Of a stretch of 64,000 nt of DNA, positions 18,701 through 43,505 are shown in pieces. Origin of the DNA: Schmidtea nova (Eukaryota); assembly GCA_044892505.1 (NCBI GenBank), contig CM097883.1:38502001-38566000 (forward strand). Reading direction: 5' to 3'. The notes under the pieces are model-generated. The model made no database searches, was not told where the DNA came from, and saw only the letters and a list, made by a program, of their open reading frames with translations. The first letter of the stretch is position 1, and each line of letters begins with the position of its first letter. The translations under genes were made by a program, and so were the position numbers.

Positions 18701-20070
18701 AATTTATAACTTACTAATCAACTGTCTGACTCCAATGCGTGCTTTATTAATCAATAAAATAAAAATTAACAATAAGAACTTTTATTGATATCACAACTGG
18801 TTTCACAATTTACACTGGTACAACCAATTAATAATATGAGACAATTATACAGTGCTTTATATGATACGTTTGTGAAGAATAACACTCGTGTATAATATCC
18901 GTCTAGCAATCACTAGCTACTGATTTATATTTGAAAATGGGTAACCAACTAATTGCTTTCTTTGCTTTGACTTGAAATTTGACCCAACAAACTTTTCTCA
19001 ATAAATCTCTCACAATTGTTTTCGCAACAAATTCCTGAATAAATTTCACTCAATAAATTCTCAATAAATTTCTCTCAATCATATTCTCAATCGATTTCTC
19101 AATAAATTTCTCTATAAATTTCTCTCGATAACACTTTTCTCAATAATATTTCTAATACTCTTTCCTCACACAAATTTTGTAATACCACTCGAATTTTAAT
19201 TCAACTGCGATGCTTTTTTTATAGCGCGTCAAAGTTTGCGGCACTTGAAACAAATTTGTTTTTATACTTTGCTTTTCGCCTTCTTCCACAGCTCTCGTCT
19301 TATCTCTGACAACTGTCGAAATATGCCTTGCTTTCCACTCTGTTGTTCCGACTTTTTCTCCTACCATTCCGATATCTCTGATAGGCTGTCAAAATATAAT
19401 TTTCTACCGGTTTTTTGTTTTTCGATTTCGGGATTCCTTTTGCCTTTGTACTTTTTAATTAGTGTTGGATCCACCATTTGGTCCACATTTAATATAAAAA
19501 ATAATAATAACAAGAAATAAATAAGAATAAATTAAATTAATATAATTACGAGAAGTTTCAGAAAGGATCAATTAAAAAGATAATAAAGAATATTAATTTT
19601 CTATAAAAATTTAGAAGAAAGTAAATAGGAAATGTAAAAGTGTTAAAGAAACAATGATATTTAATTGTATTTAAGGCAAAATAAAGAAATAATAAAGAAA
19701 AAGAATTACAGAATATTAAAAAGCAAAAACAACAAATTATTAGTAATTTAAAGCAAATCAATCGATTTGATTTTTAATGTAATTTATTTTTTGTGCTGAT
19801 CGGATGATCAGCTTCAAGCTGATTGGTCAGTGATCTGATCTGATCAGTATATATACTGATCCAGATTCAGATATTTTTAATGCATAAATTTTTTTCAGTG
19901 ACAAAAATTTTCTTTGTATTTGGTGAGAAGCTAATAGGTATGAGTATTTTTGTTTTATTGAATTTATAAATTTTATGATTATCTGTCATTGACCATTGTA
20001 GTTAATTGTTAATAAAATATTTTAAGATATATGATTTTTAAATTTTTGTCGAGTATAGAACTAAGCCAAG

Positions 20071-20355
20071 CTTCTTCCACTGTGAAATCAGTGGAAGGAG
20101 ATGACTCTATTTATATATATGATTTATCTTTTATTGAGCTTCTTCCATCGTGTAAGCGGTGGAAGGAGGCAACAGTATCAGTTTATATTAACAACTAACA
20201 AGTATAATTTTAGAAGTAATTATTGGGTCGAGCTTCTTCCACTGTGAAATCAGTGGAAGGAGGCAAATATATATTATCTATATACCGTATTTATAGTATA
20301 AAATTACGTATGATTTAAGGGGCTCCGTTCACCGTGCAATCGGGAACATGGAGGC
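20071..20355 (+). repeat. Four dispersed hairpin repeats in the LTR (also 44946-45230)
   Basis: CTTCTTCCACTG-TGAAAT-CAGTGGAAGGAG at 20071 and 20233; variant at 20139; degenerate copy at 20323. Confidence 0.85.
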
Positions 20356-21084
20356 ATACTGTGCCGAGTAGAAACGACTGCTCCGTACAGTTAGGCCGTC
20401 CGACCGGTGTGAAGCGCCGAGACGAGGGTAGGAATTTTATTTTTGATTTCTAACCTTATTTTTCACTGGATAGTATAGCCAGTTGAAGTTTTATTTTATA
20501 ATCGATTTAAATTTTTTGAGTTTATAGTTAAGTTGAGTTTTGATTTTAGTTTGAGACAGATATAGCTGTGATTTTATTAATCTGATTTTATATTGGAATT
20601 CTCCGAATGTTAATCTATATTTTTTGATTGTCACATCTGGGGTTTGTGGGCATAGAGCGGCAGATACACGTTTAAGAATTTGTACAAAATATAATTTTAA
20701 TAACAACATAAAAATCGATAACTCTAATAACGTAGTGATCTACTACGCAAGTAACATAGCAGCAATAGGCTATAGGTTCAAACATTCCACATAAATAATT
20801 AAATATAATTGCTTATCCTGAACCCTGTACATAGGGCAGTGGATCTTAGTTTATTTTAATAATTTTCTTATCCTGACTGCTGTATATAGCACAGGCGTAA
20901 CTGAATAAAATGCATTATGAAATAAATGTATCTGATCGCTGTACATAGCGACAGTGTTGAAAGCGTAATAGGTAAATCATTTTCTTTTCCTAAATTAACA
21001 ATTACCAATTGTCAAAAGCATGAGAATCGTTCAGATCAAGACGGTCAATTTCATGTGAATAAACCAATTTTGAATTTTAGAAAA

Positions 21085-21675
21085 ATGTCAGCCAACACAG
21101 CAACCAATCAAGCCGAATTAGACAAAACATGGAGGATAATTCGCAGCCTCGAAAAGGAAATGCTGCGAAAATCAGAGAGAATAAAAGAAGCCGATGGCAT
21201 AATCTCCAACCTAAAGAAAAGCTGGTTCAGTCCAGAACAAATGAAAACACAAATTACAAAAACTCAACGCTCACAGCGAGCTAACAGCGAATTGCAAATG
21301 GAATTAGACGCGACGAAGATGGAATTAAAGAAATGCCTAAAATCTGTAACGGCATCGTATCTAACTCAGGAGCTCAGCCAGCTCATTCGACCAATCACTT
21401 ACCAGCATTGGGCTGACGAAAAGGCGGGATGTACAAAGGGAACAAACACCGAGGAACCATCTCAGGTTCAAGCAACAACAATAGCCAGTACACCAAATAA
21501 CTCGATAAATCCAGAAGTCAAGAAGAAAAGGAAGAGCAAGATGGGAGCACGTCAGCGTCGCTGGAAGAAACAAGTTCTTCAGCAATTGGCTCAACAATCC
21601 AAAGAAATTCCAGAAATTGATTTGACCATGAATTTTGCAATATCAGATGAAGACATTACTAAATACTTTGAATAG
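21085..21675 (+). CDS. LTR-encoded ORF (196 aa from ATG 21085; track ORF from 20926): coiled coil, basic KKKRKSKMGARQRRWKK motif, acidic tail
   Basis: Open frame kept in both LTRs; ATG 21085 preceded by TTTTGAATTTTAG|AAAA. Confidence 0.6.
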   Translation: MSANTATNQAELDKTWRIIRSLEKEMLRKSERIKEADGIISNLKKSWFSPEQMKTQITKTQRSQRANSELQMELDATKMELKKCLKSVTASYLTQELSQLIRPITYQHWADEKAGCTKGTNTEEPSQVQATTIASTPNNSINPEVKKKRKSKMGARQRRWKKQVLQQLAQQSKEIPEIDLTMNFAISDEDITKYFE

Positions 21676-22290
21676 GAATTTTGTGATTTAGCTGTTTTCG
21701 CGTATTAAATAATTTTTGTTTTGTATTTATTTTATTGTAAAGTATAGAAAATAATGTGATTTATTAAAAATTTTAAAATAATTTAAAGAAAAATATAGAT
21801 TAAATTAAACTATACATTAGAATCAACAATAGGATTAACCTAAATCTAATAAACAATAGAAACATTAAAGAGATAATATATTGTAATTGATTAAAGATTA
21901 CTTGTTGACATTGTAAAGAAGGGGGCTGAAAGAAAAGTTGAGAGTTGAAAGATATTGTAAAGAAAGGGGGCTAAAGAAACATTGAAATGAAAGATAATGG
22001 ATGCGGATAGATTAAAGTTAAAGCGTAAGTCCTTCTATCGGCAGCGAGACGAACCCGTGAACATAAATAGGGAGTAGTTTTAGCAATAGAGCTCACCTGC
22101 CCATCATTGTTCAAACACCTTGCACATTTCCAACTCGATTATTACAGGGAAATGATCGAGGGTGCTCGTGTGATATGTAAGCATTTTATGTGAGGTTTTG
22201 GATGGAGGAATCCCTAGAGCGTTTAAAAATAATTATTAGTTTAATTTACTGTTTTTGTTTTAACCCAATCCGAAACCAACAACATAAATT

Positions 22291-22308
22291 TGGGGGCTCA
22301 GCCGGGAT
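22291..22308 (+). promoter_or_regulatory. Primer-binding site, tRNA-Pro-like
   Basis: TGGGGGCTCAGCCGGGAT matches the MLV-type tRNA-Pro PBS TGGGGGCTCGTCCGGGAT at 16/18 positions; it lies 9 nt downstream of the LTR end. Confidence 0.85.
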
Positions 22309-22520
22309 CAAATTGGTTTTTGTGCGGAAAATTGAATCCAACAATAACAAGGAGTTTTAAAGTACCCCTCAGCCGGGATCAAATTGGTTTTTGTGCGGAA
22401 AATTGAATCCAACAATAACAAGGAGTTTTAAAGTACCCCTCAGCCGGGATGAAAATGGTTTTTTGTGCGAAAAATTGAATCCAATAATAACCAGGAGTTT
22501 TAAAGTGCCCCTCAACCGAA
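22297..22520 (+). repeat. Three 71-72-bp tandem units beginning with the distal 12 nt of the PBS
   Basis: CTCAGCCGGGAT at 22297, 22368 and 22439; degenerate CTCAACCG at 22511. Confidence 0.9.
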
Positions 22521-22821
22521 AATGTAATTGATTTTTGTATAAAAGTGAAAACAATATCAACAGAGAATTTTGAAAAACAATTATTGAATAAATATAACAA
22601 CAGACGATTAATAATTGATATTAAAATAAAATAAATAAACATAAATAAATATGTCGGGACGACAATTTGATGAAGCAGGGAGAGGTTTAACATCAGAAAA
22701 CGAAATGTACCACTACTTTTGACCGACACAAATCAAACAAATAGAGAAACAAGATATTGAAATTTTTATTTTTTATACCAAATAAAACAGCAAACATATT
22801 AACAATATCAATTATTTAGCA

Positions 22822-23283
22822 ATGAACGATAAATTAAAAGAAATAGAAGAATTCTTAAACACGGAAAACAAAACATACGAGGAATTATGCGAGAAAATAA
22901 GTCGAATAAGAGAATCCGGATTCACAGAACCCATGACACAAACCGAAGAGACAACAGAGCTGATAAAAATAATGGAAAGAGTAGACAAAATAGATATAAC
23001 AACTAGATACAAGTGGTACCGAACGAGATTAGAAAATGCTGATGTAAACATAAAATGTAGACAGTTAGAACAACAATTAACTCCAACATACAACAAGTGG
23101 ACGATACAAGGAACTGAGACAGCTAAGAAATTTAAACTGTGTTACATATGTCGAGAAAGGGAGAATAAAATCATGTTTTTACCATGTGGACATTTCCGGT
23201 TTTGTGGAATCTGTGCAGCCAATTGCGACAAATGCCCGATGTGCAATCTTGAAATAGGCGAAAGAATTACTGTGTATTTATAA
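22822..23283 (+). CDS. Accessory RING-finger protein with C-terminal IAP/MDM2-type C3HC4 RING (153 aa, no BIR)
   Basis: CYICRERENKIMFLPCGHFRFCGICAANCDKCPMC..I..RITVYL at the extreme C-terminus parallels the XIAP/cIAP RING. Confidence 0.85.
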   Translation: MNDKLKEIEEFLNTENKTYEELCEKISRIRESGFTEPMTQTEETTELIKIMERVDKIDITTRYKWYRTRLENADVNIKCRQLEQQLTPTYNKWTIQGTETAKKFKLCYICRERENKIMFLPCGHFRFCGICAANCDKCPMCNLEIGERITVYL

Positions 23284-23911
23284 TAAATAAATGATGAATT
23301 TAGTAATATTATTCGTAATAAATAAAATATGAGAAAGGATAATGAGAATTAATATGATAATTCATAATGAGAATTAATATGAGAATTCATAAGGAGAATT
23401 AAAAAATGAAAATTGATAATGAGATTAATAATGAGAATTTAAAATGAGAGTTGATAATGGCAATGACAGAAATCATGATAACAATTGATATTTATAAATA
23501 ATTTTTGAGCTGCTCACGAGTAGTCCGTTAAGCACCCATTGGGAGGAACCAACTGATCAACTTACCCGAGATGTATAGAAAGGGGCCCATCGCGGAAATT
23601 GGAAAGCTTTTGTGATGTGACTGATCACCACATCTTGCATTAGTAGACCAATGCGATCTTTTTGTATGTTTTGGTTGGGGTGAAAGGTAGGAACCATCTA
23701 ATGAGGTTTAAGTACACACAAAAAATACCAATAAAAAAGAGAGAATAGAACACTGATCAGTGGAAGTCGAAAGAACATTAAGTGAATAAGTAGAATGAAA
23801 GTTAATGTGATAACTCTCATAACAATAGAGATAATTCAGCTGAATGATAACTAGCGAAGTGGATAATTGCGGTTAACCGGTTAAAGAGATTAGTTAAATA
23901 CCTTGTATAAA

Positions 23912-24232
23912 AAGGGTCAAGGGCAAATAAGCCATATTAGTTACTCTGAAAGAAGGGTCAAGGGCAAATAAGCCATATTAGTTACTCTGAAAGAAGGGTC
24001 AAGGGCCAACGAGCCGTATTAGTTAATTACTCTGAAAGAAGGGTCAAGGGCCAACGAGCCGTATTAGTTAATTACTCTGAAAGAAGGGTCAAGGGCCAAC
24101 GAGCCGTATTAGTTAATTACTCTGAAAGAAGGGTCAAGGGCCAACGAGCCGTATTAGTCAATTACTCTGAAAGAAGGGTCAAGGGCCAACGAGCCATATT
24201 AGTTAGTTACTCTGAAAGAAGGGTCAATGGCA
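23912..24232 (+). repeat. Tandem array, 2x41 bp plus 5x45 bp plus a partial unit, core AAGGGTCAAGGGC
   Basis: Unit starts at 23912, 23953, 23994, 24039, 24084, 24129, 24174, 24219. Confidence 0.92.
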
Positions 24233-24380
24233 ACATAAGAATTTGAACCTATGATTGCAATAGCGATAGCAACACAAGGAATGTGAACCTGTGATTGCGA
24301 TTATGGATAGCAACATAAGGAATGTGAACCTATGATTGCGATAGTTGATAGCAACGTAAGGAATATGAACCTAGAGTTGT
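24232..24380 (+). repeat. About 40-bp degenerate tandem repeat (GAATGTGAACCTATGATTGC..GATAGCAAC) x3-4
   Basis: Repeated GAAT(G/A/T)TGAACCT motif directly after the previous array. Confidence 0.75.
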
Positions 24381-24487
24381 AGTCGTCGACGACGTGAGAA
24401 TAGTGAGCATTAGAGTTTGAGTAATAAAAGTAAAGATGATTAAATAAACTAGAGATTCAGTATGCATACAAGTAGAAATAAGAATAG

Positions 24488-24720
24488 GAGAAATTAGAGT
24501 TGACCGGAAAAACCGGTAGAAATAGTGAAAATAATGAATAATGATGAGAAATTAGAGATGACTGGAAAAATTGATGGAAATAGTGAAAAAAATGAATAAT
24601 GATGAGAAATTAGAGATGACTGGAAAAATTGATAGAAATAGTGAGAATAATGAATAATGATGAGAAATTAGAGATGACTGGAAAATTTGATAGGAATAGT
24701 GAGAATAGTGAGTAATGATG
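24488..24720 (+). repeat. 58-bp tandem repeat x4
   Basis: GAGAAATTAGAG at 24488, 24546, 24604, 24662. Confidence 0.85.
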
Positions 24721-25152
24721 ATATAATGAATAGTGATAAAATGATAATTGAGTCAGGAGAACTCAAGGGAATTAAAGCGTTTGAGCGACAAATTAAATTG
24801 GGAGACTGAGGGAAAAGTAATGAATTTATTTGATAACGATAGATAATTATTACGACCATATAGATAATTGTTACCAGTGAATAGATAATTTAAATAGACT
24901 TAAATAAAGGGGAAACCGGGAATGGGGAAACAATGGAAACCCAATAATGAGGAATAAAAGCGCAACGATAACAATGATGTATCGTTGAAGTGACTTTTTA
25001 ATTTAGATATACGGAACAGAACAAGTCAAACAACCAACCAATCAATCAGAATACGATAACAGAGAAACAGAAAAATTGATAAATTAAAGAAAAGTAAACC
25101 GAGATCAAGAGCAGTTAAAAATCAAGAAGTTAATAATTCACAAAGAAATAAA

Positions 25153-28100
25153 TTGAGATCAAGAGCAGTTAGTGCTACAATCGAAAAAGTTGATAATTCA
25201 CAGAGAAATAAATCGAAACAAAGAGCAACCAGTGCTACAAAGAAAACAAATCCTAAAGGAAGTAAATCAAGAAGAGTAATAGTAGAAAAGTCAAAAGTCG
25301 AAAACAGTAAATTTTCTAAAACTAACGAAAGTGAAACAGAAGAAAGTGCAAGTGAAACCTACGATAATTATAATAATACGGAAGCATCAGATAACGAGTC
25401 AATAAACACAGAAGAAGTAGAAGCAGAAATTGATAATAATTCAAACGAAACGAATAACGAGCATACTAGTGAAACAAGAGGAAACGAGAGTAAAACGACA
25501 CAAGACAGCGGAATCGAAATGAACGAACATAAAGAGGAAATTAAAGATAAATTTACTGGAGAACCATTCAATGGAGATGCCAGCAAGTTAGAAACGTTTT
25601 TAAAAGAATTTGGTATATTTGTAGAAATGTGTAAATGGAAACCAGAAACGATAAGAAGCAGAATTCAGTTATATTTAAAAGACAGTGCGTTAGACTTATA
25701 TTTAGAAGCTAAAAATTCAGATGATCAACTTGATAGTTGGGAAAAGATAAAGAATTTTTTCCAGCAAACGTTTGGAATAAATAAAGTATTAAATGAAGCG
25801 TTTACAGAATTTTCAATGAGGAAACAAAAAGTTAATGAATCAAATGCAGCATATGCAAGTGAATTAAAGAAATTGGCTAAATTGGCATTTAATCAAAATA
25901 GTCCAATGAGTCCAGAATTAATGGCAGCAATTTTTGTGGGGGGATTGAGAAGACCCGATATAAGAGCACAAGTTGGATGCCAAGGTTGTAAAACAATAGA
26001 TGAAGCGTTGGAAATTGCTAACAGATTCGAATTACATATGATCGGAAGTGAAGGAAGAATTTACCTAGCAATGGATACGACACAAAACGAACAAGCAATA
26101 AAGATAAATAACCATATTCCGAACTCACAGCAATTAAATCGACCACCACCTCAAAGGAGAAATGAGGGAAATAAAATACAAAATTACGGAAACCAAAATA
26201 ATTATAGTACGCAAGGACAAACAAAGCAATGTCAAACCTGTGGAAAGTTAGGACATTGGCAACAAGAATGTTTCGCGAATTTAAATTGTAAAAAGTGTGG
26301 AAGAAAAGGACATGCAGAAAATAGATGTTACCAAAGATCATGTTATAACTGTGGACAATCAGGTCATATGGCGATGAACTGCCAACAACAAAACAACCAA
26401 CAAAGGAATTGGTCGAACAACGGAAATCGACAAAATTATACGAATCAACAGAGTAACGGAAACCGTCAGAATTTTGAAAATCAACAGAGTAATTATAACC
26501 AGAACAAAAGTACCACCAAAGAGATACATTTATTACAAGAAGTTCAGAGATTGACAGAGTTAATAAACAATACACCGAGAGGAAATCAACAAACGAATCA
26601 ACAACAAATGAATATGATGAGAAAAGTGGAAAGTGAAAATGAACGACTAAACCGAGAAAGTCAAGCACGACATGCTCAAGAATGGGCAAGAATACAAAGA
26701 GAAGACGAACAGAAACGACAAGAAAGAGAACGACAACCATTGAGAATTAATATGATGAGAGCAGCGAATCAAACAAGAGATAACAAGGAAGATATTGAAC
26801 CAGAAACAAATCAGATAAAACCAAATTTAGTAGATGAAGAAAACCAAAAAGAAATAATACAAGAAAACGAAGAAGTTATTAAACAAAAAAGGATGTTGGT
26901 AGTCATGCCAAACGATCATGTATTTCAATTTGAATATGATGAAAAAGAGGAAGTGGGAGTGTTAATTAATAAAGTAAACAAGACGATTCCGGGAACGACG
27001 AAACTACCCCGAGAAGCAATTTTACAGACGGAAGACGATGCAGCAATAAAATTGAAACCAACCGACATATGGAAAGATTTAGGAGTACCAAGGAATAAAA
27101 TGAAAGTCACAGTTATCCAAGAAATAGAAGAAAATAACGATGAAGAGAAATCAAAACCAGTAACAAAAGTCAAAAGTAGAGCATTGAAGATATTTGAAGA
27201 GAGAATCAAACAGAGAAAAGCAATGGAGATAGAAAAACGAAGAGGCCAAATAGAAGAATCAGAAAACAGTGACAAAAAAGAAGAGATACCACCAAAAAAT
27301 GTACCAGATAAAGTAGAACAGACAGCACATATAAATATGTTAAGAAACTTAACTAGAGAATTTTCAGATGTAGAAAGTGACAGTGATGTCAGTAGTTTAG
27401 CAGGGGATATGCTAAAAGAACCAGAAAAGGAAGACAACAAGATAGAAGTAGCGAAGATGCCAGAAAATGTACAAATAAAAGAAGATGAAATTCAGAAACT
27501 ATTAGATAATGCGTTAGAAGTGATTTATAACGAAGAATTTATTGATAAGAAGCGATATCGAAAATTTATAAGAGCAGTATTCCGAACGAACTATAAAGAA
27601 CGATTACAAAGTCGTGAAATAGAGATACTATCAGGATACGTCGTCAAACTATTAGATGAACCACTCCACGAATATATAATTTTAATAGAAATAAACGAAT
27701 GTTCACCAAGAATTTGGATCAAATCTCCATGCACGAACGAAATTTATCGATGGGTAGAAGACAGACTAGGAAGTTCGTATAAAAACAAATTTATATATTC
27801 AGGAAACGAACTTGTAAGACGAGCAACGCATTTGGTAGAAACAGGCATATGGCCAGGAGAGATAACAACATTATCAATATGCGACAATAAGAAAGAGGAA
27901 AATTTACAAGAAATCGCAAAGGAAGCAAATATGTGTTTTGAGATGAGAATTAAACCTCAGTTAGTAGAAAGGAAAGAAAGAATTCTTAGAGAAAATTTAA
28001 ATTCACTAATAGAACAAATTATTCAACAAATCGACAAGAATAGAGAAGAGTTAACAAAAACTGAATATGAGAAATTAAAACAATGCATCGAAAATATACG

Positions 28101-31100
28101 AGATACCAGCCATACGAGACATTCGTCATACAAGACTTGGAAAGTGATCGCGAAAATGGGAAAAGCGATGTTTAAACGAGGAGAAATAGGAGATTTGAAA
28201 ATCAAAGTGAAATTACCAAACGAGGACACAAAAGAAATTGAAGTAATCGCGGATTGCACAATAGAAGAATTAGTTGATGTTATCAATGAGACTTTATTAC
28301 AACGGGAAAAAGAAGACGAATTAGAAGACGATATCATCATAAAATATAATGAACACGTACTAGGGGATCATGATGAGAGACGATTATATAAAATCGGTAT
28401 ATGGGATAATTACCAAACAATTCACGTTATCAGAATGGATGATACGTCAAGAGAAACACCAAAAGACGAAAAAAGGAGACAAGAACGTCGAAGAGAAGTG
28501 ATGTACAAACTAAGACAAATAATAGAAATTTATCGAAGATGGCAGATACAGCCAGAAGGGGAAAATGTATTAGGAGAATTAAACTTCAACGAACGCCGAT
28601 TAACACCAGTAGAGAAACACTGGGATGTTAAAGAGAAATGCTGGAAAGCAAAAGGAGGTATATATGAAGAAGAATTTAGACCAGAAATGGAAGATAAATA
28701 TGAACCAGAAATCAGAAGAGTTTGTATGGTGACAAGAAAAGTCATGCCAACAGATTTGGATGGACCAGAAACCGCAGCAATATGGTTAGAAACGCAAAGA
28801 CGAAAAGCTGACGAACTTATTGAATTACTAAGAGGAAATGTACAAGGTAAAAGGCGAACGATCAAAGGATTAGCCGAATTCTTTGTAGCAGGCGGCGAAG
28901 ATATAATTAGTTTACGAAAAGTAGCAAAGGCAGTAACAGAATATAAACGAGTTAACGAGTGGTGCCCAGAACAATTAGACAATGTAATCAAGAAATGGAG
29001 AAACCAGGAAAACTCCCAAGAACCACCACAGAAAATACATTTAAGGATAATATATCCAGATCGAGAAAAAGAAGAACTTTGGGTAAGATTAACTGAAAAG
29101 ATTCGGGATGTTAAAAAGAGATTAAAATATGAACCACCATTTCATCTACAACATCAAGGACGATCACTAGAAAACGATATGGAAATTTGGATAACGCCAG
29201 CACAGTTAGAACTGGCAAATACGCTAACAGTAGACGCAATAGCAGGTCAACCATTAAAACTTAAAGAGAAAAGAGTAAGAGAAAGTGAAGATACTCAGAA
29301 TCTAAAGAAAACGATGCAGATAACGCCAGGAACAAGCGCAAGGCAGTACGAAACAACATCAATTAAAATCCAAGAGAGAACTCGACCACAACCATACGAT
29401 ACAGAAGAAATCCTAACAGACAGTGATGACATGCTAGAAGAATTAGCAAAATTGACAAAAGAAAAAGGCAATAATATTTTCGAAAGAGTACAAGAGTTAC
29501 CCACAACGTCACAAGCAATCAATACCCAAGATGAAGTTGAGCAAGAAATAGAAATAGAAGAAGTGAACGAAATCTCTGAAGAAGAAGCAAGAGGAGCAAA
29601 TACAGAAAACGAACGATTTACACAAGAAATGGAAAAATGGTGGGAACAGAGAAATAATGAACCAAGAGATGTTACAGAAGAAACTGGACGAGAAACCAGA
29701 TTAATTGAAACAGGTACAACAATGGATAGACGACCTAGAGGTAGACCAAAGACAGATCCAGCCAACGTAATCAACAAAACAAAAGAAGAAAGGAGACAAG
29801 AGAAATGGGAATTATGTTTAAAGAAACTCAACAAAATAGCAGAAGCAAAAGACCAGGAAATAACGCAAAAATGTCAAGGCGAAGGATGGATATCAAAAAC
29901 ACTAATGGAAATACTGGCGATAATTGATCCAGAATTGAAAAAATGGTGGAGAATAAACGAAATAAGCGACAAGGCTAAAGCATTACATAGCGCAATCGCA
30001 CCAATCTTACCCGAACTGATAAAAGAGAAGACAAAATCAAGCCATTTAGATTGGCAAGGGACCACAACGTTGATAAAGAGGTTAACTGAAGATGCAGAAA
30101 ACGATAATAAATATGTGATAGCAATTGCGTATACAATTTATAACTTATTAACATTGAGTAGAGGTAATCCAAAATCTATGGCAATAGAGAAACATATCAA
30201 AAATACGGCAAGCATCATAGCAAAAGAAATAGAACCATACGTCATCAGTAAAGGAGGATGGGAAACATTTGTTAAAACGAATCAAAGAAACAGTCAAGCA
30301 AAGAATATGAAAAAGAAATTTGAAGAAATTTTAGGAGAATTAGAAAAAGAAAAGTCAGGAACAGGAAGTGGAAAATCTTCACTAAACCTGAATTCAATCA
30401 TAATGATGATATTAATATGGCTAATTAGCGTTGAAGGAGCAACGGCGTTCGAAGTATTTGATTGCGACCAGATGGCATTAGGAGAAAAATATTCATTAAG
30501 AGGAACCGAACAATGCAAAGATGCAACTCCAACAGAATTAAAAGTATTACATAAAGAACAAATATACCACATATATCAGGAAGCCGACTTAATAAAGACA
30601 ACAGTTAATGAATGTAAAATATATAAAACAAGATTTGCTTTTTATTGTGGACATCGCCACTACTCTGCAATCGTAATGCCAGGAACGGAAAGAGAAGCGA
30701 TAATGTTACAAGGAGAAGATTGCAATAAATTGTTCAAACATGGAGAAGTCGAAACAAGAGATCGAATAAAGATAAGAGGAAAAGCTGGAGTAATACTACA
30801 ACAAACATATTATGTAGCAGGAGCTATCACAGGAGGAGAAGGTTACTGTCAAGGAGCAACATACCCAATATTTGGAGTACCAGCAACTAACATGGTAGTA
30901 ATCGACACATATACGGTAGAATTAAAAGCGTATGAAGCATATTTTGACCCAGCAACAGGAGAAATGAAGACGTTATCAATGTGCAAAATTGAAGCCAGTA
31001 CTTGTCAAACCGGTATGTCAACTTTAACATACAGAGCAAAAGCAAATGAATGCCAATTACAATTATTAAAGGAAGCAGAGTTCGACGAGGTACAAGGAAA

Positions 31101-34100
31101 AATCTTTCAGGAAGAAGATGATGATGAAGTAGCAAGAGGAAAACGTCTACAGGAGACAGTAAAAGGAGAGAAACCGTTCACAACTAAAGTACAAGAAAAA
31201 GAGGTGAGGATGAGAGAGACGCCAACAGTATTGGTTACATCAAACGCAAATATAGGAATGAGGTTTGTAAAAGGAAAACCGGCATTAAAATGTGGTGTTT
31301 CTATGTTAGAAACAAATTATCCAGGTATTTATGTATCAAGACAAGCAGCACCAAATGCAAAACCCAAGATAGACACTACAGACATCAAATTGCACGTATA
31401 TTTAAATAACAAATTGGATTTTTTATTTCATAAAGGTCAAGCATCAATGGAGAAAATATACTACGATCTCATTAACAACGATTGTATATTGAACAGAGAA
31501 ATATTAAAGACGAAATTAGCGGTAGCAATCACAAACCCGGATAGTGCTATGCCATTATTACCACTTAACGAAGGTCATTTTGGAAGAGTAGTTGGAGAAG
31601 TTATGTATGTATATATATGCCAAAAGACACAAGCAAACCTAGCAACAACGACCAGAATACGACAAGGACAATGTACCAACGAATTAGAAATTGAATATAA
31701 AGGGAAAATAAGATATGTACAACCAGTGACAAGAATCATTAACCCAGTTAGTTTTGAACCAAACCCTTTCAATTGCAGTAATGCATACGGACCATTATAT
31801 CAGAAACCAGACGGGAATTGGGTCATGTTTCCGTCAAGATCAGAAGTACAACCACCTAGAGAATTTGAATTGATGCAACTTTCAAAAGGACGAAAATTTT
31901 CCAATATAGATGTAATTAACGGAGGAATTTACAGTGCAAAAGATCTTGAAGCAGCACGACAAAATATATTATTTCCAGCTAGAAGAGAAGCAGTATTATC
32001 TAGCATTGTAACGATAACAGGAGGAACAAGTTATCAAGGAGGACCAAATTATGAATTATTACTGTCACCAGCACACTTTAGGAAAGCAACAGAGAATATG
32101 ATGAAAGCAATGTGGGGACGATTTTTAATTTTCGGACAAATGATGGCCGGAATATTAGGTGTAATTTTAATCATACAAATAATACGAGTGATAATCACAC
32201 AAATGCTAGCATGTTTCGATATTTATAAAAGAGAAAAGAAAGTTAATTGGAAATTAATAGCAGGATTTTTACCATTTTTAGCAAAAACGATGGTGTTACA
32301 TGGTCACTCCAAAGATATTCATAGAATAAAAAGATTATTAAAAATACTGGCAAAAATGAAAGGAACAGATGAAGACGTGGGAAGAAAATTCAAAAAGATA
32401 ATGACAGATGAACAAGCGAGATTACAATTAAAAAGCGAAAGAAAAGGATTATGGGAAAGAATAAGAGGAGATAAAACTCAAGATGATTCCAGTGATGACG
32501 ATGATAACAATGACGACTGTGAAGGAGGGCAAAGGTATAGAAACCAAGCACCGCAATATAGCGACAAGAATCCAACAGAAGCATGGAAATGTCACGCACC
32601 TCCACCAACAATGTACCAAGAACCATTACAGGTATCAGGACACAGAGCAATGCAAATGATGCCAATGACAACTTTATATCCAATTATACCAGAAGATTAT
32701 AAACTTAGACGATGTAGAAGTATGGATCCGCAAGACGATTCACTCACAATTGCAGTCATGTCATCAAATACAGGACCAGTATTAACTACAACCATAGAAA
32801 TAAATGGAAAAGAAATAGAAGCGATGATAGATACAGGAGCAAACATTTCGGCGATAGATATCAAATGGATACCGCAAGAACAAAGACAAGAAATTGAAAG
32901 AACAAATGTTCATGTAATAGCATGTAGTAAAGAGATTGTTGAAGTTGCAGGAAGATGGTGGGTGAAAATACGACACCAAAATATAGAAATCGAAACGTAT
33001 GTAGCCGTAATACCAGCTTTAAGCGTACCATGTATAATCGGAACAGATTTAATGCCAACACTACTTAAAGAAATAATCATCGATCTTGGAACAATGAGAT
33101 TAAAAGACAGAACAGGGAAAATATGTGCTATGGAAGCAAAAGTAATAAGCTCAAAACAAATGATAATACCAGCCAGAAAAGAGAAAATATGTTATGTCAA
33201 AATAGACCCTACAATAGAAGGAGACATGGTTTTCGAGCCAAGTAAGAGATTCGAGAAAAGGAAATCATTGCAAATGGCAAGAGGCTTAGTTAATATAAAC
33301 AACAACGGAGAAATCCCAGTAAATGTAATAAATTTTGATGAAGAAGATAAGATAATTTATGAAAACGAAAGATTAGGCAAACTAACTCCTATGATAGACA
33401 TCGAAATACCAACAAAAAGGGGAGAAAAAGCGGAAGAACCAATATGGAATATTGACAGTAAATTGTTAAATGAGGATCAAAAGAACCAATTAGAGAAACT
33501 TCTAACAGAATATAAAGATATATTCGCAGCATCTGATTTAGACCTAGGAACATGCGATGTTACAGTACACACGATACCACTATTAGACGAAACACCGATA
33601 GCATTGAGACCCTACAAATTGGCAGAAGCACAGAAAGCCGTAGCAGAGGCAGAAGTGCAGAAAATGTTAGACGCAGAAGTTATTGAACCCAGTTGTTCAC
33701 CGTGGCAATTTCCAGTGGTAATGGTGAAGAAGAAAGATGGAACGCAAAGATTTTGTATCGATTATAGAAGATTAAATGCAGTAACGAAACGAGATACATA
33801 CCCATTACCAGACATTAACGAGATGTTGTTGACATTACAAGGAGCAGCCTATTTCACATCATTAGATTTAAAAAGCGGTTACTGGCAAATAAAAGTAAAG
33901 GAGGAAGATAAGGAGAAAACTGCTTTTACTATTGGAAGAGACTTATATCAGTTCAGGAAAATGCCATTCGGATTAACCAATGCACCAGCATCATTTCAGC
34001 GATGTATGAATTTTGTGACGCATGGAATAAAACAGTGCATGGTTTACATTGATGACCTATTAATTTATTCAAGCACATTCGAACAACATATACAAGATAT

Positions 34101-37100
34101 GAGAGACGTATTCGTTAGACTCAGAGAATGGAAATTAAAACTAAAACCATCAAAATGCGATTGGGCAAAAGAAAAAGTAACTTTCTTAGGACACATAGTG
34201 TCGGCACAAGGGAAAGAACCCGATCCCAGAAATATTGAAAAGGTTAAAGAATGTCCAGCACCAAAAACGATAACACAAATACAAGAATTCCTTGGTTTAT
34301 GTGGATATTACAGGAAATTTATAAAGGATTATGCAGGAATTGCAAAACCCATGCAAGAATTAGTAAAGAAAGATGTAACGTTTATATGGGGACAAGAACA
34401 ACAAACAGCGTTTAAAACGCTAAGAGATAAATTGATAACCGCACCAATATTAGTTCATCCAGACTTCAAGAAACCATTTTTACTAGCAACAGACGCAAGT
34501 GGATACGCTGCAGGAGCAGTACTAGGACAATATGATGATGAAGGGAAAGAAAGAGTAATCGGATATTACAGTAGAACGTTTAAAAAGCATGAGAAGAATT
34601 ATTCAGTAACAGAAAGAGAAGCATTAGCAATAATATTGGCTATAAAACACTTCAAATATTTATTATGGGGACATGTAATATGTATAACTACAGACCATCA
34701 ACCGCTTGTATGGTTAGGACAGCATAAAGAAACATCCAGTAGACTAATGAGATGGGCAATGCAACTGCAAGAGTACTCACCAGATATAAAATTTAAATCA
34801 GGAAGAGCAAATTCAAACGCAGACTGTATGTCAAGATTAACTTTCCCAGAATTAATAGACCCAGAGGTACAAAGAATATGCGTATTGATAGCGGAAGATT
34901 TAGATTTCAGCGAATTAAAGAAGGACCAACAAGAAGACAAAGAATTAGGACTAATAATAGAATTTATGAAATCACGGAATTTAGACGTATTCAAAGATAA
35001 TGAGGAATTAACAGAACATGTGAAAAAATATCAGCATCGGTATATAATAGAGAAAGGATGGCTGTTAATACAAGATGGAGAAAAGAGGTTAATGTGCTTA
35101 CCAGAAAATAGACGAAAGGAAATAATAACGCAATATCACGATGGAAAACTCGGAGGACATATGTCAAGCCAGAAAACAATCAATCGTATGAGACAGAAAT
35201 ACCATTGGCCGACAATGGAAGAAGATGTTAAAGAATGGATAAAAAACTGTCTAACATGTGCAACTAGAAAAGATAGCGGTAAGAAATGGAAAAATCCTCT
35301 AAAACCTATGCCAATACCAGCAGAACCAATGACAACCATCGCGATGGATGTAATAGGACCGTTACCAGAAAGCTTGAACGGAAACCAATACATACTAGTA
35401 ATAACAGATTATTTAACGAAATTTCCAGAAGCATTCGCAATGGAAGACCAAAAAGCAAAAACAGTAGCAAAAATCTTGGTAGAAGAGATATGTTGTCGAT
35501 ACGGAACGCCTAAACAAATATTGACAGACCAAGGAACGAATTTCATGAGCGAAGTATTCGACGAAGTAACAAATTATTTTAGAATAGCGAAATTAAGAAC
35601 GTCACCCTATCACCCACAAACTAATGGACAAACAGAACGATTTAACGGCACATTGATTAGAATGCTATCGAATTACGTATGTAAACATCAGACTGATTGG
35701 GATGAGTATATAAAACTATGTCTAATGGCTTATAGAATGTCGATACATGCAGCCACAAAATTAAGCCCATTCAAACTAATGTATGGAAGAGAATGTAACA
35801 TACCTATTGATTTAGAATACCAACCACCATTGTCTCAATACATGGAAGAAGACGACTATGTTACCAAGTTCAAAGAGAGAATGCAGGAAATATGGAAGAC
35901 AGCGGAACTAAATATAAAATTTTACCAAGAAAGTTATAAAGATTTGCACGACCAAAAGAAAAACGTGAAGACAAACGATTTAAAACCAGGAGACTGGGTA
36001 ATGATTGAAACCCCAGAAATAATACCAGGAACAGTAAAGAAATTACAAAGACCGGGAAAAGGCCCGTATGAAGTGATATACAGAAACGAAGATAATGTCA
36101 AAGTAAAACTTGTAAATCGACCATTAGTACGACCAATATACGTGAATACATGTAGATGCAAGAAAGTGCCAAAAACAATAACAATGATACCGGAAGAGAG
36201 AATCATGACGAGATCACAAACCATCAGAATAAATATGCTCAGAGCGGAAGAAATTAACACAACTAGTCAAGTAGACAGTGAGAAAATAGATGTTGACAAA
36301 GAGATCGTACGAAAAGCCAAAGAAATAAACGAAAGATGGGAAATCAGACAAGAAAAAGACGTATTATGGGATATACGACAAATAATCAGTGATTACGCAC
36401 GAGGATGCCCAACCAAACCAATTATAATAGAATTACTAAAGAAAATACCAGAGATACTCGTATTACAAGATACAGGAGGTGCAACTGCACTACACAATGC
36501 CATAAGTTGGGGTAAAACGGAAAAGGTAAAAGAATTCTTGAAAATAGCAAAAGAAACGAATCAAAATCTAGACATTGTAAATCGAGAATTAGAAACGCCA
36601 ATGATGACAGCAACCCTAAGCTTAGCAGATAAAGAAATAGTAGATATGCTGATTAACGCAGAATTCAACTGGACAGCTCGAGATAGAAGAGGAAACACAG
36701 TTTTAAACCATGCAATAATGAGTGAAAATCAAATGATACTAAAACATATAACAACCAACCTCACATGGGAAATCGAAGAATTAATCAAAGGAGAAATTAT
36801 GAAAGAAGCGATTCGGAAGGGAAACACTAAAACAATATGGAAACTAATACAATGGAAATGGCCGAATAATAAAACATGGGTATTAGATATAAACAAAGAA
36901 TTTAGCGAAGGACAGAATGCACTATTGAGATACTTGTTAGAGTTTACGTGCGATCAGAGAACGATGTTAGCACTAATAAATAGAGGAAAAATAAATATTA
37001 GTAAAAACGAAGAGGAATATAAACTAGAAGTTGAAAAGAAAGCTTTATTCAGGAAAATTTGGGTATGGTGTCAAAAACAAATACGCAAAGACATAAGCTA

Positions 37101-40100
37101 CAAAAATATAAATGATTTCCAAGAAAAGTATAAGATAATAATAAAGGAATACAAGAAGCTAGTGGAGATATTAAACGATCCAGAAAAATTTAATCAAGCG
37201 ATAAATCAGAAAGAAGAAGAAAGTAAAAGGATACTCACACCATTGTTCAACGCGAAGATAGATTACCAAGAAAGATTGGATGCAATACACCAAAAAGCAA
37301 AGGAACTATTACCAGAATTCAAAAATACTAAATACGCCTTGGAAATACTTGGCGCGATAGTAGAGAAAGTACACGCGTACGCGAAAGGAATATATAATGG
37401 AAACGATATAATAATTATAAAAAGAGAAATGCCAGTTGCGTTCTTATTAACTAAAGAAAGAATAATGCCGATTCATAGAGCATTGAGAGCAGGAAAAGAC
37501 GGTAAAGTAATCGAAATCGCAAGAGTAATGCATCAATGTGGATGTGATATGAATATGATAGACGAAAAAGGAGACACCCTCATGGTATACGCAGCAAGAG
37601 CAAAAACAAAAGTCAAAGTATTAGAAGAATTATATAAAGCAGGCGCAGGATTAATCGGAAAAACTGTCAAAGACAACTCAATATTAGACGTGACATTATT
37701 AGGTCCAAACTGGGAAATGTTGAATTTCATTAAAACGATAACAAACCAGGAAGAGATAGACTATTTAACAGAAACCGTAAAAGGACCAAGCGTATTGACA
37801 ATGATGCAAAACATCAAATTGACAGAAGAAGTATTAAACTGGAAAATACCAAATACAAACAAACCAGCATTTAAAGTTAACAAGTTTATGGAGAATAATC
37901 GAAATTGGTGTATCCAAAGCGCACTAATAACTTATATATGGCCCGAAATTGTAGAAATTTTCATGAGAAGAGAAGATCTGAGATTTACAAACAAGCCCAA
38001 AGAAACGGAAAAGATGGTCAAATGGAAAGAATTGATGAAAACACACCTTCAAAGTTGGATAAAAGCCAAGAAAGAAATTATACAGTATCAATTAGACAAC
38101 AAAAAGATACCCGAAGATATAGAATTCCAAGAATTTGAAGCAAGTAACTTAACATCATTATATTATGCAAAACTAATAGAAACCAGTAATGTCGAGGACG
38201 ACATTTTTAACGAGCCAGGGAGAGATAATAATACTGACAATGATGATGACGATGAAGAAAACAATGACGACGAGAGAAATAAAGACGATGATGATGATGA
38301 AAACAGTCACGGAAATCCAGATAACCACGAACAAACCAATAAAGAAGACGAGAACCAAGAGAGAAATACAAAGAAACAAGAATCCAAAGAACCAAGAGAA
38401 GACAACCCTAAAAATAATCATGAAAAGAAAGGAACAAGTTACAGAAGGAATCCATTATTCAGACCAGAAGTATTAATGTTCGCAATAATCATAACACTTA
38501 TGGGACAATGTGAAGCAACGAAACAAGAGATATCAGTAGAAATGGAAGTACCAATACAAAAAGCATCAACACAGATAATGAATTCAAAGGATATTGAACA
38601 AGTATGTTGGGTCAAAGAGAACGAAATTCTCGGAGATAACAACCTATTACGATGTATAATACCAAACCCCGAGCGAAAAACTATAATAATAGACGAAATG
38701 GACATGGAAACATGGTACAGAATATGTACTATCAGAAAACCCAAGGACGAAAAATCACACAAAACAGTTACATGCCAAGTATACAAGACACCCAAAGTTC
38801 GATATGAGTTCGCCAATGGAATAGACCTTCCAGGACCATTTTATTTTAAAATAACAAGAGAACCAGCATCAAGAAAAGTCTTACAACAACTAAGAACCAA
38901 GATAACAACACCAAGTATAAGGAATACAACGGATAAACCAGAACCAAAAAGACGAACGAAACAAACCACAAGAGTAATCTATAATTCCAAGTTGTTATGT
39001 ATAGCACTTATTATGACAATACTGAAGCGATTGGAAGAAGGGATAGAAATGGATACAATGACATTAATAGACATGGAAGAGACACGAATGACAAATCAAA
39101 AATGTTGGGTTAGAAACGATGAAAAATTAGAATTAAAGGAATCAAGAGAAATTCAAAAATTGGAAGCGAGTAAAACGAACAAAGTAATCAAGATAATAAA
39201 GATAAAAACAGACAGAATTCATAAACTATGTTTATTGGAAAAAGAGAGAAACAAGAAAGGAATAACCAATTGTAAAACATTCCAAGCAGGGAAAATAATA
39301 ACGTTTGCAAGAAAAATGGGGAAAAGAAACAAACAAAATTTCCAGAAATTAACCATAACGTTAGAAATAACGGGAATAGAACAAAATGTAAACGGAGTAT
39401 GCTGGAGAAAATACGAGAAAGAAACGAATAAACATAAATCATCACAATGTCAAACAATCAGAGGAACAACTGCAGTGCAAATAAAAAGCTTAGAAAGAAA
39501 TCAAACGTATGAAATATGCCTAGTAAAGGAAAATGATCAAATAACGAAAGAAGATTTAGAATGCAGAATATACAAAGCACCGAACAGAGTAAAAACCATT
39601 AAAGCAATACGAAAGAATAAAAGACAACAAAAACCGAAGCATACCACTACCGAAAGTCAAACAGAACCAGAGAGGAAAACCTCAGCAACACTTATACTTT
39701 GGAAACTAGATGACAAAACAGTAGAAATATGTTGGACAATGATCAAGAAATATGAAGAAAGACAACCACAACAATGCGAAAAGATGAACAAAGAAGAGGA
39801 GATCAGAATTCAGAACCTACAATTGGACAAACAATACGAAATATGCGCAATAGAAAAGGCAGATAAATTTGGAAACCAGCAAGAGAAATGTGGAAACTAC
39901 TATACACCGACAAATACAACGATCAAAGGAAGAATCAAGAAACTAACTTTCGGAGAATTGAATCAAACAACGAAACAAATGGAAAACGAGGAAACAATAA
40001 TAGATTCTTATGCACAATGGAAACCAGAAAAAGTAATCCAGGAAGTCAAAAGGAAACAACAAGAACGACAACAATTGGAACTCAAATTGAAAGGACAATA

Positions 40101-40529: not shown

Positions 40530-40865
40530 ATGAATGTACAAGGAGAAACAACCGAAATGACTTTGACTATGCGATGGAAAGCACAATGTGAAACGTTAGT
40601 TCGATCAATTAATGCACTACAGAATCAATTGGTAGAGAAGCAAAATATATTAGCAGATTGTTACAACAATATCTTTGAGCAGTTACATAAAATAGAAGAG
40701 CAACAGAGAATAATAACAGAACTAACCAGAGAGAATCAAAGATTGAGACAAACGATGGAAATAAATCAACTAACAAGAAGAGATGAATCAGAAGGTCAAT
40801 GGCTAGATTGGGTAATAAATGGATTAGAGAATGGTATAGAACCAGATTCAACGAGCGAACCATAG
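40530..40865 (+). CDS. Accessory small coiled-coil protein (111 aa)
   Basis: ATG preceded by TATTTTAG|AAA; heptad-like composition. Confidence 0.6.
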   Translation: MNVQGETTEMTLTMRWKAQCETLVRSINALQNQLVEKQNILADCYNNIFEQLHKIEEQQRIITELTRENQRLRQTMEINQLTRRDESEGQWLDWVINGLENGIEPDSTSEP

Positions 40866-40961
40866 TCAAATTGTAGCGGAAAATTGTATATATGTAAAAA
40901 TAAAACTCTAGAAAAATCAAAAACAAAGAACAAATCAATGTATGTATATATTATTGTAGAA

Positions 40962-42296
40962 ATGGATAAAGAGGAACGAGCAGTCGAGATTTTGAGAGCA
41001 GCAAACAGAAATTGGAATAAGAGATTTGTATGTGGATATTGTAATAATTTATTACGGAAACCAAAGCAAACCGCCTGTGGATGTAGATTATGCACTAGAT
41101 GTGTACAAATGTTAGAGTTAAAAGGAATAACAGAATGTTCAGAATGTAAAGAAGGACAAATAGTATTAGACGAAACGAGACCAGATAGAGCAACTCAGAG
41201 AGAAATCATGAGCATATTAATTGAATGTATAAATCCACCGTGCATATGGCAAGGACAAATCAGCGAAATTGAAAATCATATAGAAAATTGTGAAGAAAAG
41301 AGAAGCGAATGTGAAAAGTGTAAAGAAACGATAATTTTAAAAGACAAAGAGAAACACAGAGATGAATGCAAAGAGGAAGAAATCGCATGTGAATATTGCG
41401 AAATTCGAGAAACAAGGAGAAAAATTGAAGAGGAGCACATCAATATAAAAGAAGAGAAAATATGCGAACAGTATGTAGGAGTGTTCCCAAACAAATGTGA
41501 AATTACCGAAGAAGTGAAATTACGAGAACATTGGGAAAAGTGTACAGAAATACCAAGAGAATGTCCTTACAACAGATATGGATGCAAAGAAAAGAAGTCT
41601 CAACAAACGATGAAACAACATTTAGAAACAGAAGCAATCAATCATATTGAAATGACAGACAGAACAATTCAGAAATTAGAAAAGGAAGTAGAATCTCATA
41701 AAATAATGATGAACCTATTATTAGAAACGAGAGAACAGGTTGAATTAACCCGAGGAAGGATGGAAAAGAAAATAATATATAACAAGTTAATATATAACAA
41801 GTTAATACAAGAAATTGATGAGAAAAAAGATTTACCAATAGCACCTTATGTATGGAAATTAACGGATTTCCGAAATAAATTGGAAGATGCACGAAGCTGC
41901 AAGAAAACTGCGGTACTAAGCCCACCATTTTACTTATGGAAAAACGGGGCTAAAGTGAGATTGAAAGTATATCCAAACGGAGATGGGAAAAGTAATGGAA
42001 AACACGTATCGATATTTTTTGCGTTTTGCAAAGGAGAATATGACGATTTAATCGATTGGCCGATAGGAGTAGGAGTAATGATAAAAATCAGGGGTTTAAA
42101 CGAAACCATAGAAAAGAGATTCACGACAGAAAAAGGAGCAGTTACCAGTAACAGACCAACAGAAGAATGTGGATTAGCAAGTGGAGAGCCACACTTTGTA
42201 TTACAAAGCAAGATATGGGGATTATTGTATGAGGACACCTTATACATAGAAATGGAAAGGAACGAGAAGGCAGATAGAAAAGGATGGTTGGCGTAG
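40962..42296 (+). CDS. Captured full-length TRAF-like protein (RING, TRAF Zn fingers, coiled coil, MATH); 444 aa from ATG 40962
   Basis: CGYC..KPKQTACGCRLCTRC..CSEC; CINPPCIWQG..ENHIENC; ECPYNRYGC; YVWKLTDF..LSPPFY..VYPNGDG..HVSIFF..KGEYDDLIDWP. Confidence 0.92.
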   Translation: MDKEERAVEILRAANRNWNKRFVCGYCNNLLRKPKQTACGCRLCTRCVQMLELKGITECSECKEGQIVLDETRPDRATQREIMSILIECINPPCIWQGQISEIENHIENCEEKRSECEKCKETIILKDKEKHRDECKEEEIACEYCEIRETRRKIEEEHINIKEEKICEQYVGVFPNKCEITEEVKLREHWEKCTEIPRECPYNRYGCKEKKSQQTMKQHLETEAINHIEMTDRTIQKLEKEVESHKIMMNLLLETREQVELTRGRMEKKIIYNKLIYNKLIQEIDEKKDLPIAPYVWKLTDFRNKLEDARSCKKTAVLSPPFYLWKNGAKVRLKVYPNGDGKSNGKHVSIFFAFCKGEYDDLIDWPIGVGVMIKIRGLNETIEKRFTTEKGAVTSNRPTEECGLASGEPHFVLQSKIWGLLYEDTLYIEMERNEKADRKGWLA

Positions 42297-42401: not shown

Positions 42402-43505
42402 ATGGGAAACGTCGAAATCAGTTTACAAGAAGTAACCGAACATCAAGATGAAGTTATTTGTGAGCATTTAGAACAAATTAAAAGTTGGATCCACGCATAT
42501 TACCACAAACAAAAAGAAGTAGAAAGACAAGCTGAACAAATAAAAGAAGACAAAAGATTAAAGCGATTAAGTCAAGATAAAATAGACGAATTATATGAAT
42601 TATTGGAGAAACAAAAAGAATATTATAAAAAGATGATGAAAGATCGACGAGAAGAAAGAGAGCGAGAACGAACAGAAATGGAACGGAAAATGTACTCCAT
42701 TACCGAGCAAGCAAGATATTGGAAAAAAGAAGCGAAAGAATCTTATACGAAAGCAAGAGAAATAATCGAAAGAACGGCGTACAGCGATGATTGGAAATTA
42801 TTTGAAGAAATCGATAAATTAAAAGAGGAATTAGAACAGAAAACCTATCAGGAAATATCGAACAAAAAATGGAATAAAAAGAGACAACAATTCATCAGAG
42901 AGCAAGCAGGAAAAATTAAACAACTTATGCACCAGATTGAAAGGTCGGAAAGAGAATTATATTTCAGTAAACAACAATCAGATGCAAACCTCAGAGCAGG
43001 GATGCAGAAAGAGGAAGATATGAAGCGCGATATTAATGGTTATCAAGGAGTAATCACTCAAAAGAAGATAGAGTTAAAGAAAACTAAAGAAAGATTAGAA
43101 GAAGCAAAACAAAGCTATGAAGAAAATTTATTAAAATTAGAAGAAGCAAAACAAAGCTATGAGGAAAATTTATTAAATCTAACCAAAGAAAATGAAGAGT
43201 GGAAACAAAAATTGACACAAAAATTAACACCACCAAAAGAGACAGATATCACCAAAGCAGTAATAAAAATGATGGAAGAGGAAGAGAAAAACAATAAAAT
43301 AACAGAATTAGAAAAACAGATCGAAGCGTTAACAGAACAATCAAATTATTTAGAATATCTGTTAGACGAAGAAATTCAATTATCACACTTCTATCGAGAC
43401 GAAGTAACAATGTGGAGAAACACGATAGTGTGGTTACCACCCCCTACAAACCAAGTGGAACCTCAAGATGAAGGTTTTCACGAACCCAACGAGTCGTTAG
43501 TTTAA
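42402..43505 (+). CDS. Accessory long coiled-coil protein (367 aa) with a tandem 14-aa duplication LEEAKQSYEENLLK (42 bp, 43095 and 43137)
   Basis: Long E/K/Q-rich open frame; ATG preceded by AATTATAG|AAA. Confidence 0.75.
   Translation: MGNVEISLQEVTEHQDEVICEHLEQIKSWIHAYYHKQKEVERQAEQIKEDKRLKRLSQDKIDELYELLEKQKEYYKKMMKDRREERERERTEMERKMYSITEQARYWKKEAKESYTKAREIIERTAYSDDWKLFEEIDKLKEELEQKTYQEISNKKWNKKRQQFIREQAGKIKQLMHQIERSERELYFSKQQSDANLRAGMQKEEDMKRDINGYQGVITQKKIELKKTKERLEEAKQSYEENLLKLEEAKQSYEENLLNLTKENEEWKQKLTQKLTPPKETDITKAVIKMMEEEEKNNKITELEKQIEALTEQSNYLEYLLDEEIQLSHFYRDEVTMWRNTIVWLPPPTNQVEPQDEGFHEPNESLV

Follow-up and report, generated by a model that had tools for sequence, protein, structure and literature searches.

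Giant Ty3/gypsy elements, namely Burro1-4 and GYPSM1, are described in the Burro section of PMC6431247 as being about 28 kb long and as encoding one polyprotein of close to 5000 amino acids with gag knuckles, a BCL2-like region, an env located between gag and protease, reverse transcriptase (RT), RNase H, integrase and ankyrins, together with MATH/TRAF domains and accessory ORFs. The Burro cargo listed there comprises MATH/TRAF, BIR, ankyrin and BCL2-like modules, and a meddling of this cargo with apoptosis and ubiquitination has already been proposed in the same section. In addition, the B-IAP of Burro1, which combines a BIR with a RING, protects planarian stem cells (Lee et al. 2026, Dev Cell, as cited in the pertinent passage of PMC13465017). 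We have analyzed a window of 64,000 nucleotides of Schmidtea nova (GCA_044892505.1, contig CM097883.1, positions 38,502,001 to 38,566,000 of the forward strand), in which an LTR element at positions 19463-47156 of the window (27,694 bp, 27.7 kb) shares the features named above for Burro1-4 and GYPSM1, with a putative, degenerate form of the BCL2-like region. Its domain layout, that of an LTR element near 30 kb with a polyprotein near 5000 aa, an env-like glycoprotein and ankyrin and MATH/TRAF cargo, matches the description in that section of PMC6431247, by which we assign it to the Burro type. The TRAF forms a separate 3' ORF here, whereas it resides inside ORF1 in S. mediterranea and upstream in D. 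tigrina (PMC6431247, Burro section), and, unlike the Burro1-4 cargo listed there, the family represented in the window lacks a BIR. A leader gene for a BIR-less RING, which is the subject of this study, has no account in that section, and the label 'AIR1 RING' used there probably refers to the gag knuckles. Within the literature searched, neither a BIR-less Burro leader RING, as a gene family of its own beside B-IAP, nor any precedent for a BIR-less IAP-RING was found, and the texts or supplements of Lee 2026, Grohme 2018 and Silke 2005 may already annotate the ORF; the cargo theme, and with it the idea of a toolkit, is in print and not new.

The carrier element is young and intact. Its 5' LTR (19463-22281, +; 2819 bp, TG...CA) and the paired 3' LTR (44338-47156, +) differ by 2 mismatches across 2819 bp, and a TTAG target-site duplication flanks the element outside both LTRs. 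The motif following the 5' LTR (22291-22308, +), which we take to resemble a tRNA-Pro primer-binding site (PBS), is also present after the LTR at loci L085, L087, L090, L105, L109, L113 and L117. A single ORF with its ATG at 25519 encodes a polyprotein of 4962 aa (25519-40407, +), along which CCHC knuckles, a Bcl-2-like region, a fusion glycoprotein, protease, RT, RNase H, integrase and ankyrins are arranged in this order; the fusion glycoprotein is of the mononegavirus type (Monjiviricetes_fusion, E 1.4e-70) and is located in frame before the RVP domain. A TRAF-like gene with RING-like, zf-TRAF and MATH domains (40938-42296, +) resides 3' of the polyprotein. Two more 3' accessory ORFs (40530-40865 and 42402-43505) are kept across families, and a YAG occurs shortly 5' of both of them and of the second TRAF ATG (40962) and is absent at the polyprotein ATG. 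Each LTR further contains an ORF of 249 aa (20926-21675 and 45801-46550) without a confident family, which has about 40% identical counterparts in the LTRs of sister subfamilies, and the leader harbors tandem repeats at 22297-22510, 23909-24390 and 24488-24777 with units of 71, 41/45 and 58 bp, the 71-bp unit beginning within the PBS. Elsewhere in the window, we observed a single-exon forkhead gene (2585-3304, -; Pfam E 6e-29), a 630-aa ORF without Pfam match that is transposase-like by eye only (51298-53190), a 2.1-kb segment with 104-bp inverted ends (56772-58862) and a 29-bp repeat in inverted arrays (60700-61613).

Between the PBS and the polyprotein ATG, the leader gene (22822-23283, +; ATG at 22822, TAA at 23281-23283) encodes a protein of 153 aa, in which a helical N-terminal region (about residues 1-104; 22822-23133, +) precedes a C-terminal C3HC4 RING (23140-23280, +). 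The initial annotation had placed a C-terminal IAP-like RING without a BIR between PBS and gag, and the HMM search it had suggested bears this out: zf-C3HC4_3 is matched at E 2e-11 with 44 bits against a cut-off of 27, and the best solved structures are the RINGs of XIAP, cIAP2, cIAP1 and BIRC7, followed by that of MYLIP. The zinc ligands follow the pattern C107/C110, C122/H124, C128/C131 and C138/C141, and the domain, of the XIAP/IDOL class, has a tail aromatic, Y152, eleven residues behind the last cysteine and an Asn at the linchpin position. The BIR profile found no match at E<=1 in the leader ORF or in any frame of the window, while it recovered B-IAP, the positive control, at E 1.9e-14. 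Thus, of the features defining the IAP (BIRC) proteins, the leader protein has the C-terminal C3HC4 RING with its tail aromatic and lacks the BIR domain, of which at least one is called for. HHalign comparisons of its N-terminus with IAP regions gave 0.2-0.5% (0.2% with the pre-RING profiles, which bear on a possible UBA), the B-IAP positive control being itself weak at only 4.5%, and no BIR, UBA, CARD or FERM match was obtained for the leader protein.

The gene is present in many copies and is conserved among them. Conservation of the frame goes far beyond what chance would leave: only 5 of the 150 genome matches scored, out of 150 taken, had internal stops, a count biased towards intact copies because these were the best of 9317 candidates; 98 share 85-100% and 52 share 66-71% identity with the window gene. 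A sample of 50 copies from the window's own family (family A), composed of the 30 best matches and 20 of the 52 divergent ones, falls into three subfamilies and is open over 153 aa in 50/50 cases. Omega over the whole ORF ranged from 0.08 to 0.15 in 7/7 pairs, for most of which dS was close to saturation; constraint is as strong on the N-terminal half as on the RING, both halves being under purifying selection (omega about 0.1) where this was computable. Measured against two sister elements, omega was 0.09-0.10 for the leader gene, 0.12-0.13 for the ankyrins, 0.16-0.17 for TRAF, 0.07-0.08 for the Bcl-2-like region and 0.01 for RT, so that constraint on the leader gene is akin to that on TRAF and ankyrins and weaker than that on RT. 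By these evolutionary criteria, we consider the leader gene to be real and functional. A homologue search with the single leader protein as query returned 0/12 candidates.

All eight zinc ligands of the cross-brace, the aromatic at the last Cys +11 and a stop at most two residues further on were found in 50/50 family-A copies. The tail aromatic (Tyr or Phe) recurs at the same offset in the sister family carrying B-IAP (family B) and in the proteins P0002, P0151 and P0152, and the first-loop Ile is invariant in the leader RINGs. Other positions vary: family A has Asn at the linchpin, family B Lys and P0002 Asp, the Arg that cIAP1 has at Cys+9 is missing, and the loop-2 Pro is gone in family B and P0002. 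Thus, the leader RING has the eight ligands of dimeric RING E3s and lacks the linchpin Arg, which is usual and not obligatory among them. In dimeric RING E3s the tail aromatic acts in trans on the donor ubiquitin, and loss of F616, which has the same offset in cIAP1 as the leader aromatic, disables ubiquitin transfer (PMC6349121, in the passages on this residue), while linchpins other than Arg lower activity to varying degrees, XIAP working with Tyr (PMC12326332, in the part on linchpins). Since the linchpin is not Arg, E3 activity of the leader protein is expected to be modest.

On this basis we favor, with the reserve due to a reading that falls a little short of an even chance, that the leader gene is a conserved Burro accessory gene separate from B-IAP, which likely encodes a stand-alone dimeric RING E3 with a helical N-terminal region that would serve to recruit a target in the host. 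The protein would be translated from a spliced subgenomic RNA via the acceptor in front of its ATG, its RING would dimerise by way of the helix preceding it and of the tail aromatic, as do those of cIAP1, XIAP and BIRC7, and the N-terminal region would bind a host protein for ubiquitination. The target might be sought among host defence or cell-death regulators, with a benefit for the element, a class that we infer from the genes accompanying the leader gene.

The N-terminal region belongs to no known family and is common to leader genes only. Those of family A and of family B/P0002 match each other in HHalign with a probability of 92.6% (E 4.4e-7), and after removal of the RING the leader N-termini still match one another at a score reached by 0/1000 shuffles, compared to 80-514 of 1000 shuffles when they are set against the pre-RING region of B-IAP. 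The predicted structure, of modest confidence (pLDDT 69, pTM 0.37), consists of short helices and one long helix leading into the RING; this long helix is without a clean heptad pattern. Fold matches of this model were the RINGs of IDOL (top), XIAP, cIAP and BIRC7, the matching part being the RING only, and an atlas search with residues 1-102 yielded no usable match. Among the best 150 hits in 1.84 billion representatives, P0002 is the only full-length match. P0002, P0151 and P0152 share 26-36% identity with families A and B, and the best match of P0002 in the S. nova genome reaches only 40%, so that the leader gene family, including a full-length member, is present outside this genome as well.

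With regard to expression, a 3' splice acceptor, TTATTTAG (22812-22819, +), is predicted two bases 5' of the leader ATG. A YAG lies within 5 nt of this ATG in 50/50 family-A copies and in the 3/3 family-B copies shown, against a background of 125/630 element ATGs, counts that amount to about four independent cases since the copies are kin. The stretch from the LTR to the leader ATG contains six short upstream ORFs. Four contig sets of unrecorded type, uninformative on expression, gave no GT-AG joint to the acceptor among the 15 joints listed out of 18. A spliced retrocopy was present in none of 49 aligned loci; the single exact-pattern match was rejected as a chance match, the pattern being so narrow that even the unspliced form matches just 25 copies.

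The relation of the leader gene to B-IAP could be addressed within the same genome. A BIR search revealed an intronless gene, present in high copy number, which encodes about 389 aa with a BIR and a C-terminal RING, is located 3' of TRAF and represents the B-IAP counterpart. The elements carrying it also hold an ORF of 160 aa after the PBS, which aligns with the window gene from end to end at about 27% identity and occupies the same position, so that family B combines a full-length leader orthologue with a BIR-RING B-IAP that forms a gene of its own about 8 kb further downstream. Leader RING, TRAF and B-IAP occur within one 10-kb stretch at 5/5 loci, which were selected for the proximity of both hits and hence demonstrate coexistence and not frequency, and also at L081/L082. 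In family A, no B-IAP follows TRAF in 3/3 elements examined. The leader gene does not combine BIR and RING in one orthologous ORF, as Burro B-IAP does, and is distinct from B-IAP, with which it coexists in the sister family. Its interpretation as a truncated B-IAP was rejected, as both genes occur in one element and their N-termini were unrelated by the tests run; a full-length BLAST match between the family-B leader and the B-IAP C-terminus (27%, E 5.6e-12) was lost without the RING (149/1000 shuffles). The family-B copies examined (L081/L082, L105-L114, L181-L185) are non-autonomous, with PBS, leader RING, a short polyprotein of protease and ankyrins and 3' cargo; they gave no gag, env, RT or integrase match, and some also lack TRAF and B-IAP. 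The family-B leader gene has at least 150 close copies, and in one family-B copy a weak double-jelly-roll match (L118:6626-7846) suggests a nested Polinton-like insertion that would explain the 25-kb spacing there.

This coexistence is one reason to consider that the BIR-less RING forms heterodimers with that of a host IAP or of B-IAP and thereby alters the stability or activity of the partner, which we regard as unlikely. By forming homo- and heterodimers, IAP RINGs do regulate the stability of IAPs (PMC3972657, in the section concerned), and the leader RING has retained the tail aromatic while catalytic helper residues vary. Such an activity could promote death or serve as feedback control, contrary to the protective role envisaged in the initial annotation. 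However, family A selects for the leader gene with no B-IAP in 3/3 elements examined, so that only a host IAP, or a B-IAP acting in trans, could serve as the partner, and heterodimerisation leaves the constraint on the N-terminal half, equal to that on the RING, unexplained.

The initial annotation had proposed that the RING and the element's TRAF act like cIAP and TRAF2 and, together with ankyrins and Bcl-2, converge on one death/NF-kB pathway. Among the companions, TRAF (MATH E 1.5e-20, zf-TRAF) and ankyrins (36100-37800, +, behind the integrase; Ank_2 E 1.4e-13) were confirmed, while the evidence for Bcl-2 is weak. The region in question (29800-30360, +), situated before env as expected for the BCL2-like domain of Burro elements, displays a BH2-like motif only, gave no Pfam match, found Bcl-xL on top of a PDB profile search at E 0.31, reached 7% in HHalign, and a low-depth model from a 3-sequence alignment had no significant fold match. 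As its position agrees with that of a Pfam Bcl-2 match in a related family, a degenerate Bcl-2 is plausible, with weak support for this identity in the window family. The selection postulated for the modules was recovered between subfamilies, at omega 0.07-0.17 for RING, TRAF, ankyrins and the Bcl-2-like region (about 0.07 for the latter, degenerate as it is), a pattern which fits a host-facing role of all four. As a coherent set, the modules did not hold up, as they assort among families: leader RING and ankyrins are retained with neither TRAF nor B-IAP in 3/3 family-B copies of one examined set, and a third family (two elements) has a Pfam Bcl-2 with no match to the leader RING, TRAF or ankyrins in the DNA fetched. 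Convergence on a single pathway is thus unproven. The third, Burro-like family (L142/L143, L146/L147) has an ORF near 3070 aa, in which the Pfam Bcl-2 immediately precedes env and protease, RT and integrase come next; an unassigned frame of 898 aa follows.

The proposed partnership with TRAF, in which the N-terminal helix would take the place of BIR1, is in our estimation improbable. RING and TRAF genes are both under selection in 3/3 family-A elements and in many family-B copies. However, cIAPs bind TRAF2 via BIR1 (PMC3972657, in the section concerned), and the cIAP-TRAF2 mechanism is not transferable to a leader protein that lacks this domain; in addition, the element's TRAF has a RING-like domain of its own, the Bcl-2 region is degenerate, and the leader RING persists in the family-B copies devoid of TRAF, even if deletion derivatives need not be selected. 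Nor does the designation 'IAP-type' imply a death pathway, since the RING class is common to MYLIP/IDOL, MIB1, MEX3C and others, IDOL being the top fold match. A BIR was present in 11 of 32 chosen database hits; in the remainder, this RING class was combined with different domains or occurred without any.

Quite improbable, too, is a role in replication unrelated to host death, in which the E3 would ubiquitinate or turn over products of the element's own polyprotein during budding or clearance. Retroviral budding uses ubiquitin, the leader gene is the first after the PBS, and the element has an env-like fusion glycoprotein; against this stand family-B copies in which the leader ORF has stayed open although gag, RT, integrase and env are missing, and a related autonomous family with no leader-gene match in the DNA fetched. 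That a catalytically weak RING acts as a decoy, blocking E2~ubiquitin or a host ligase by binding to it, as the linchpin Asn/Lys/Asp and the loss of the loop-2 Pro in two lineages might suggest, is very unlikely given the invariant first-loop Ile, zinc ligands and tail aromatic and the activity of XIAP without a linchpin Arg (PMC12326332, in the part on linchpins).

As to the origin of the stand-alone E3 that we favor, a RING tree, short (56 residues) and weakly supported, joins B-IAP with three RING exons of its own genome (0.84) and sets the leader RINGs apart (0.87), although the L108 RING, which has an unrelated N-terminus, falls on a long branch within the leader clade. Upstream of one of the three exons lies a BIR exon close to that of B-IAP. 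Side observations in the same genome are a probable intron-containing cluster of host IAP genes (L220:6935-7303 (-), L186, L188, L189), with BIR and RING near those of B-IAP and thus a candidate donor lineage, and another repeated frame of 171 aa with a helical part and C-terminal RING, whose N-terminus is unrelated to the leader gene (L107:6416-6928 (-), L108:3604-4116 (+), L144). With low to moderate confidence, we infer two separate RING captures by Burro elements; the RINGs of family B and P0002 score alike to B-IAP and to family A, so that an ancient duplication from an IAP is possible. It might be speculated, though we consider it doubtful, that an old capture founded a novel E3 family with a helical substrate-binding domain of its own, which both autonomous and non-autonomous families as well as other organisms have kept and which destroys a specific host restriction or death factor, and that a later capture of a host IAP produced B-IAP. 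If so, the older E3 would act like retroviral accessory proteins, but with a catalytic domain of its own, and families without B-IAP would display what Burro elements need in the absence of the published mutualistic gene.

As the window family, devoid of B-IAP, and the B-IAP carriers both keep the leader RING, they offer a natural comparison between families; knock-down of whole-element RNA may hit two ligases, and the leader N-terminal domain provides a compact handle for finding host defences against Burro elements. Compared to known proteins, the leader protein shares with XIAP, cIAP1/2, BIRC7 and MYLIP/IDOL the ligand spacing, the pre-RING helix, the aromatic at the last Cys +11 and an end at most two residues later, and differs from them in that it has no BIR, UBA, CARD or FERM match, a linchpin other than Arg and an N-terminus of no known family. 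The small helical and RING proteins of ascoviruses, iridoviruses and marseilleviruses and the baculovirus IAPs have the same class of RING, some at a similar size, but the whole-chain rmsd to these proteins of large DNA viruses is high and the match is confined to the RING. Finally, the C-terminal RING of Burro1 B-IAP, as presented in the pertinent passage of PMC13465017, is of the same Pfam class, to which B-IAP adds a BIR; as the putative leader ligase is distinct from this described cell-death blocker, it would probably be an extra tool by which Burro elements steer host proteins.
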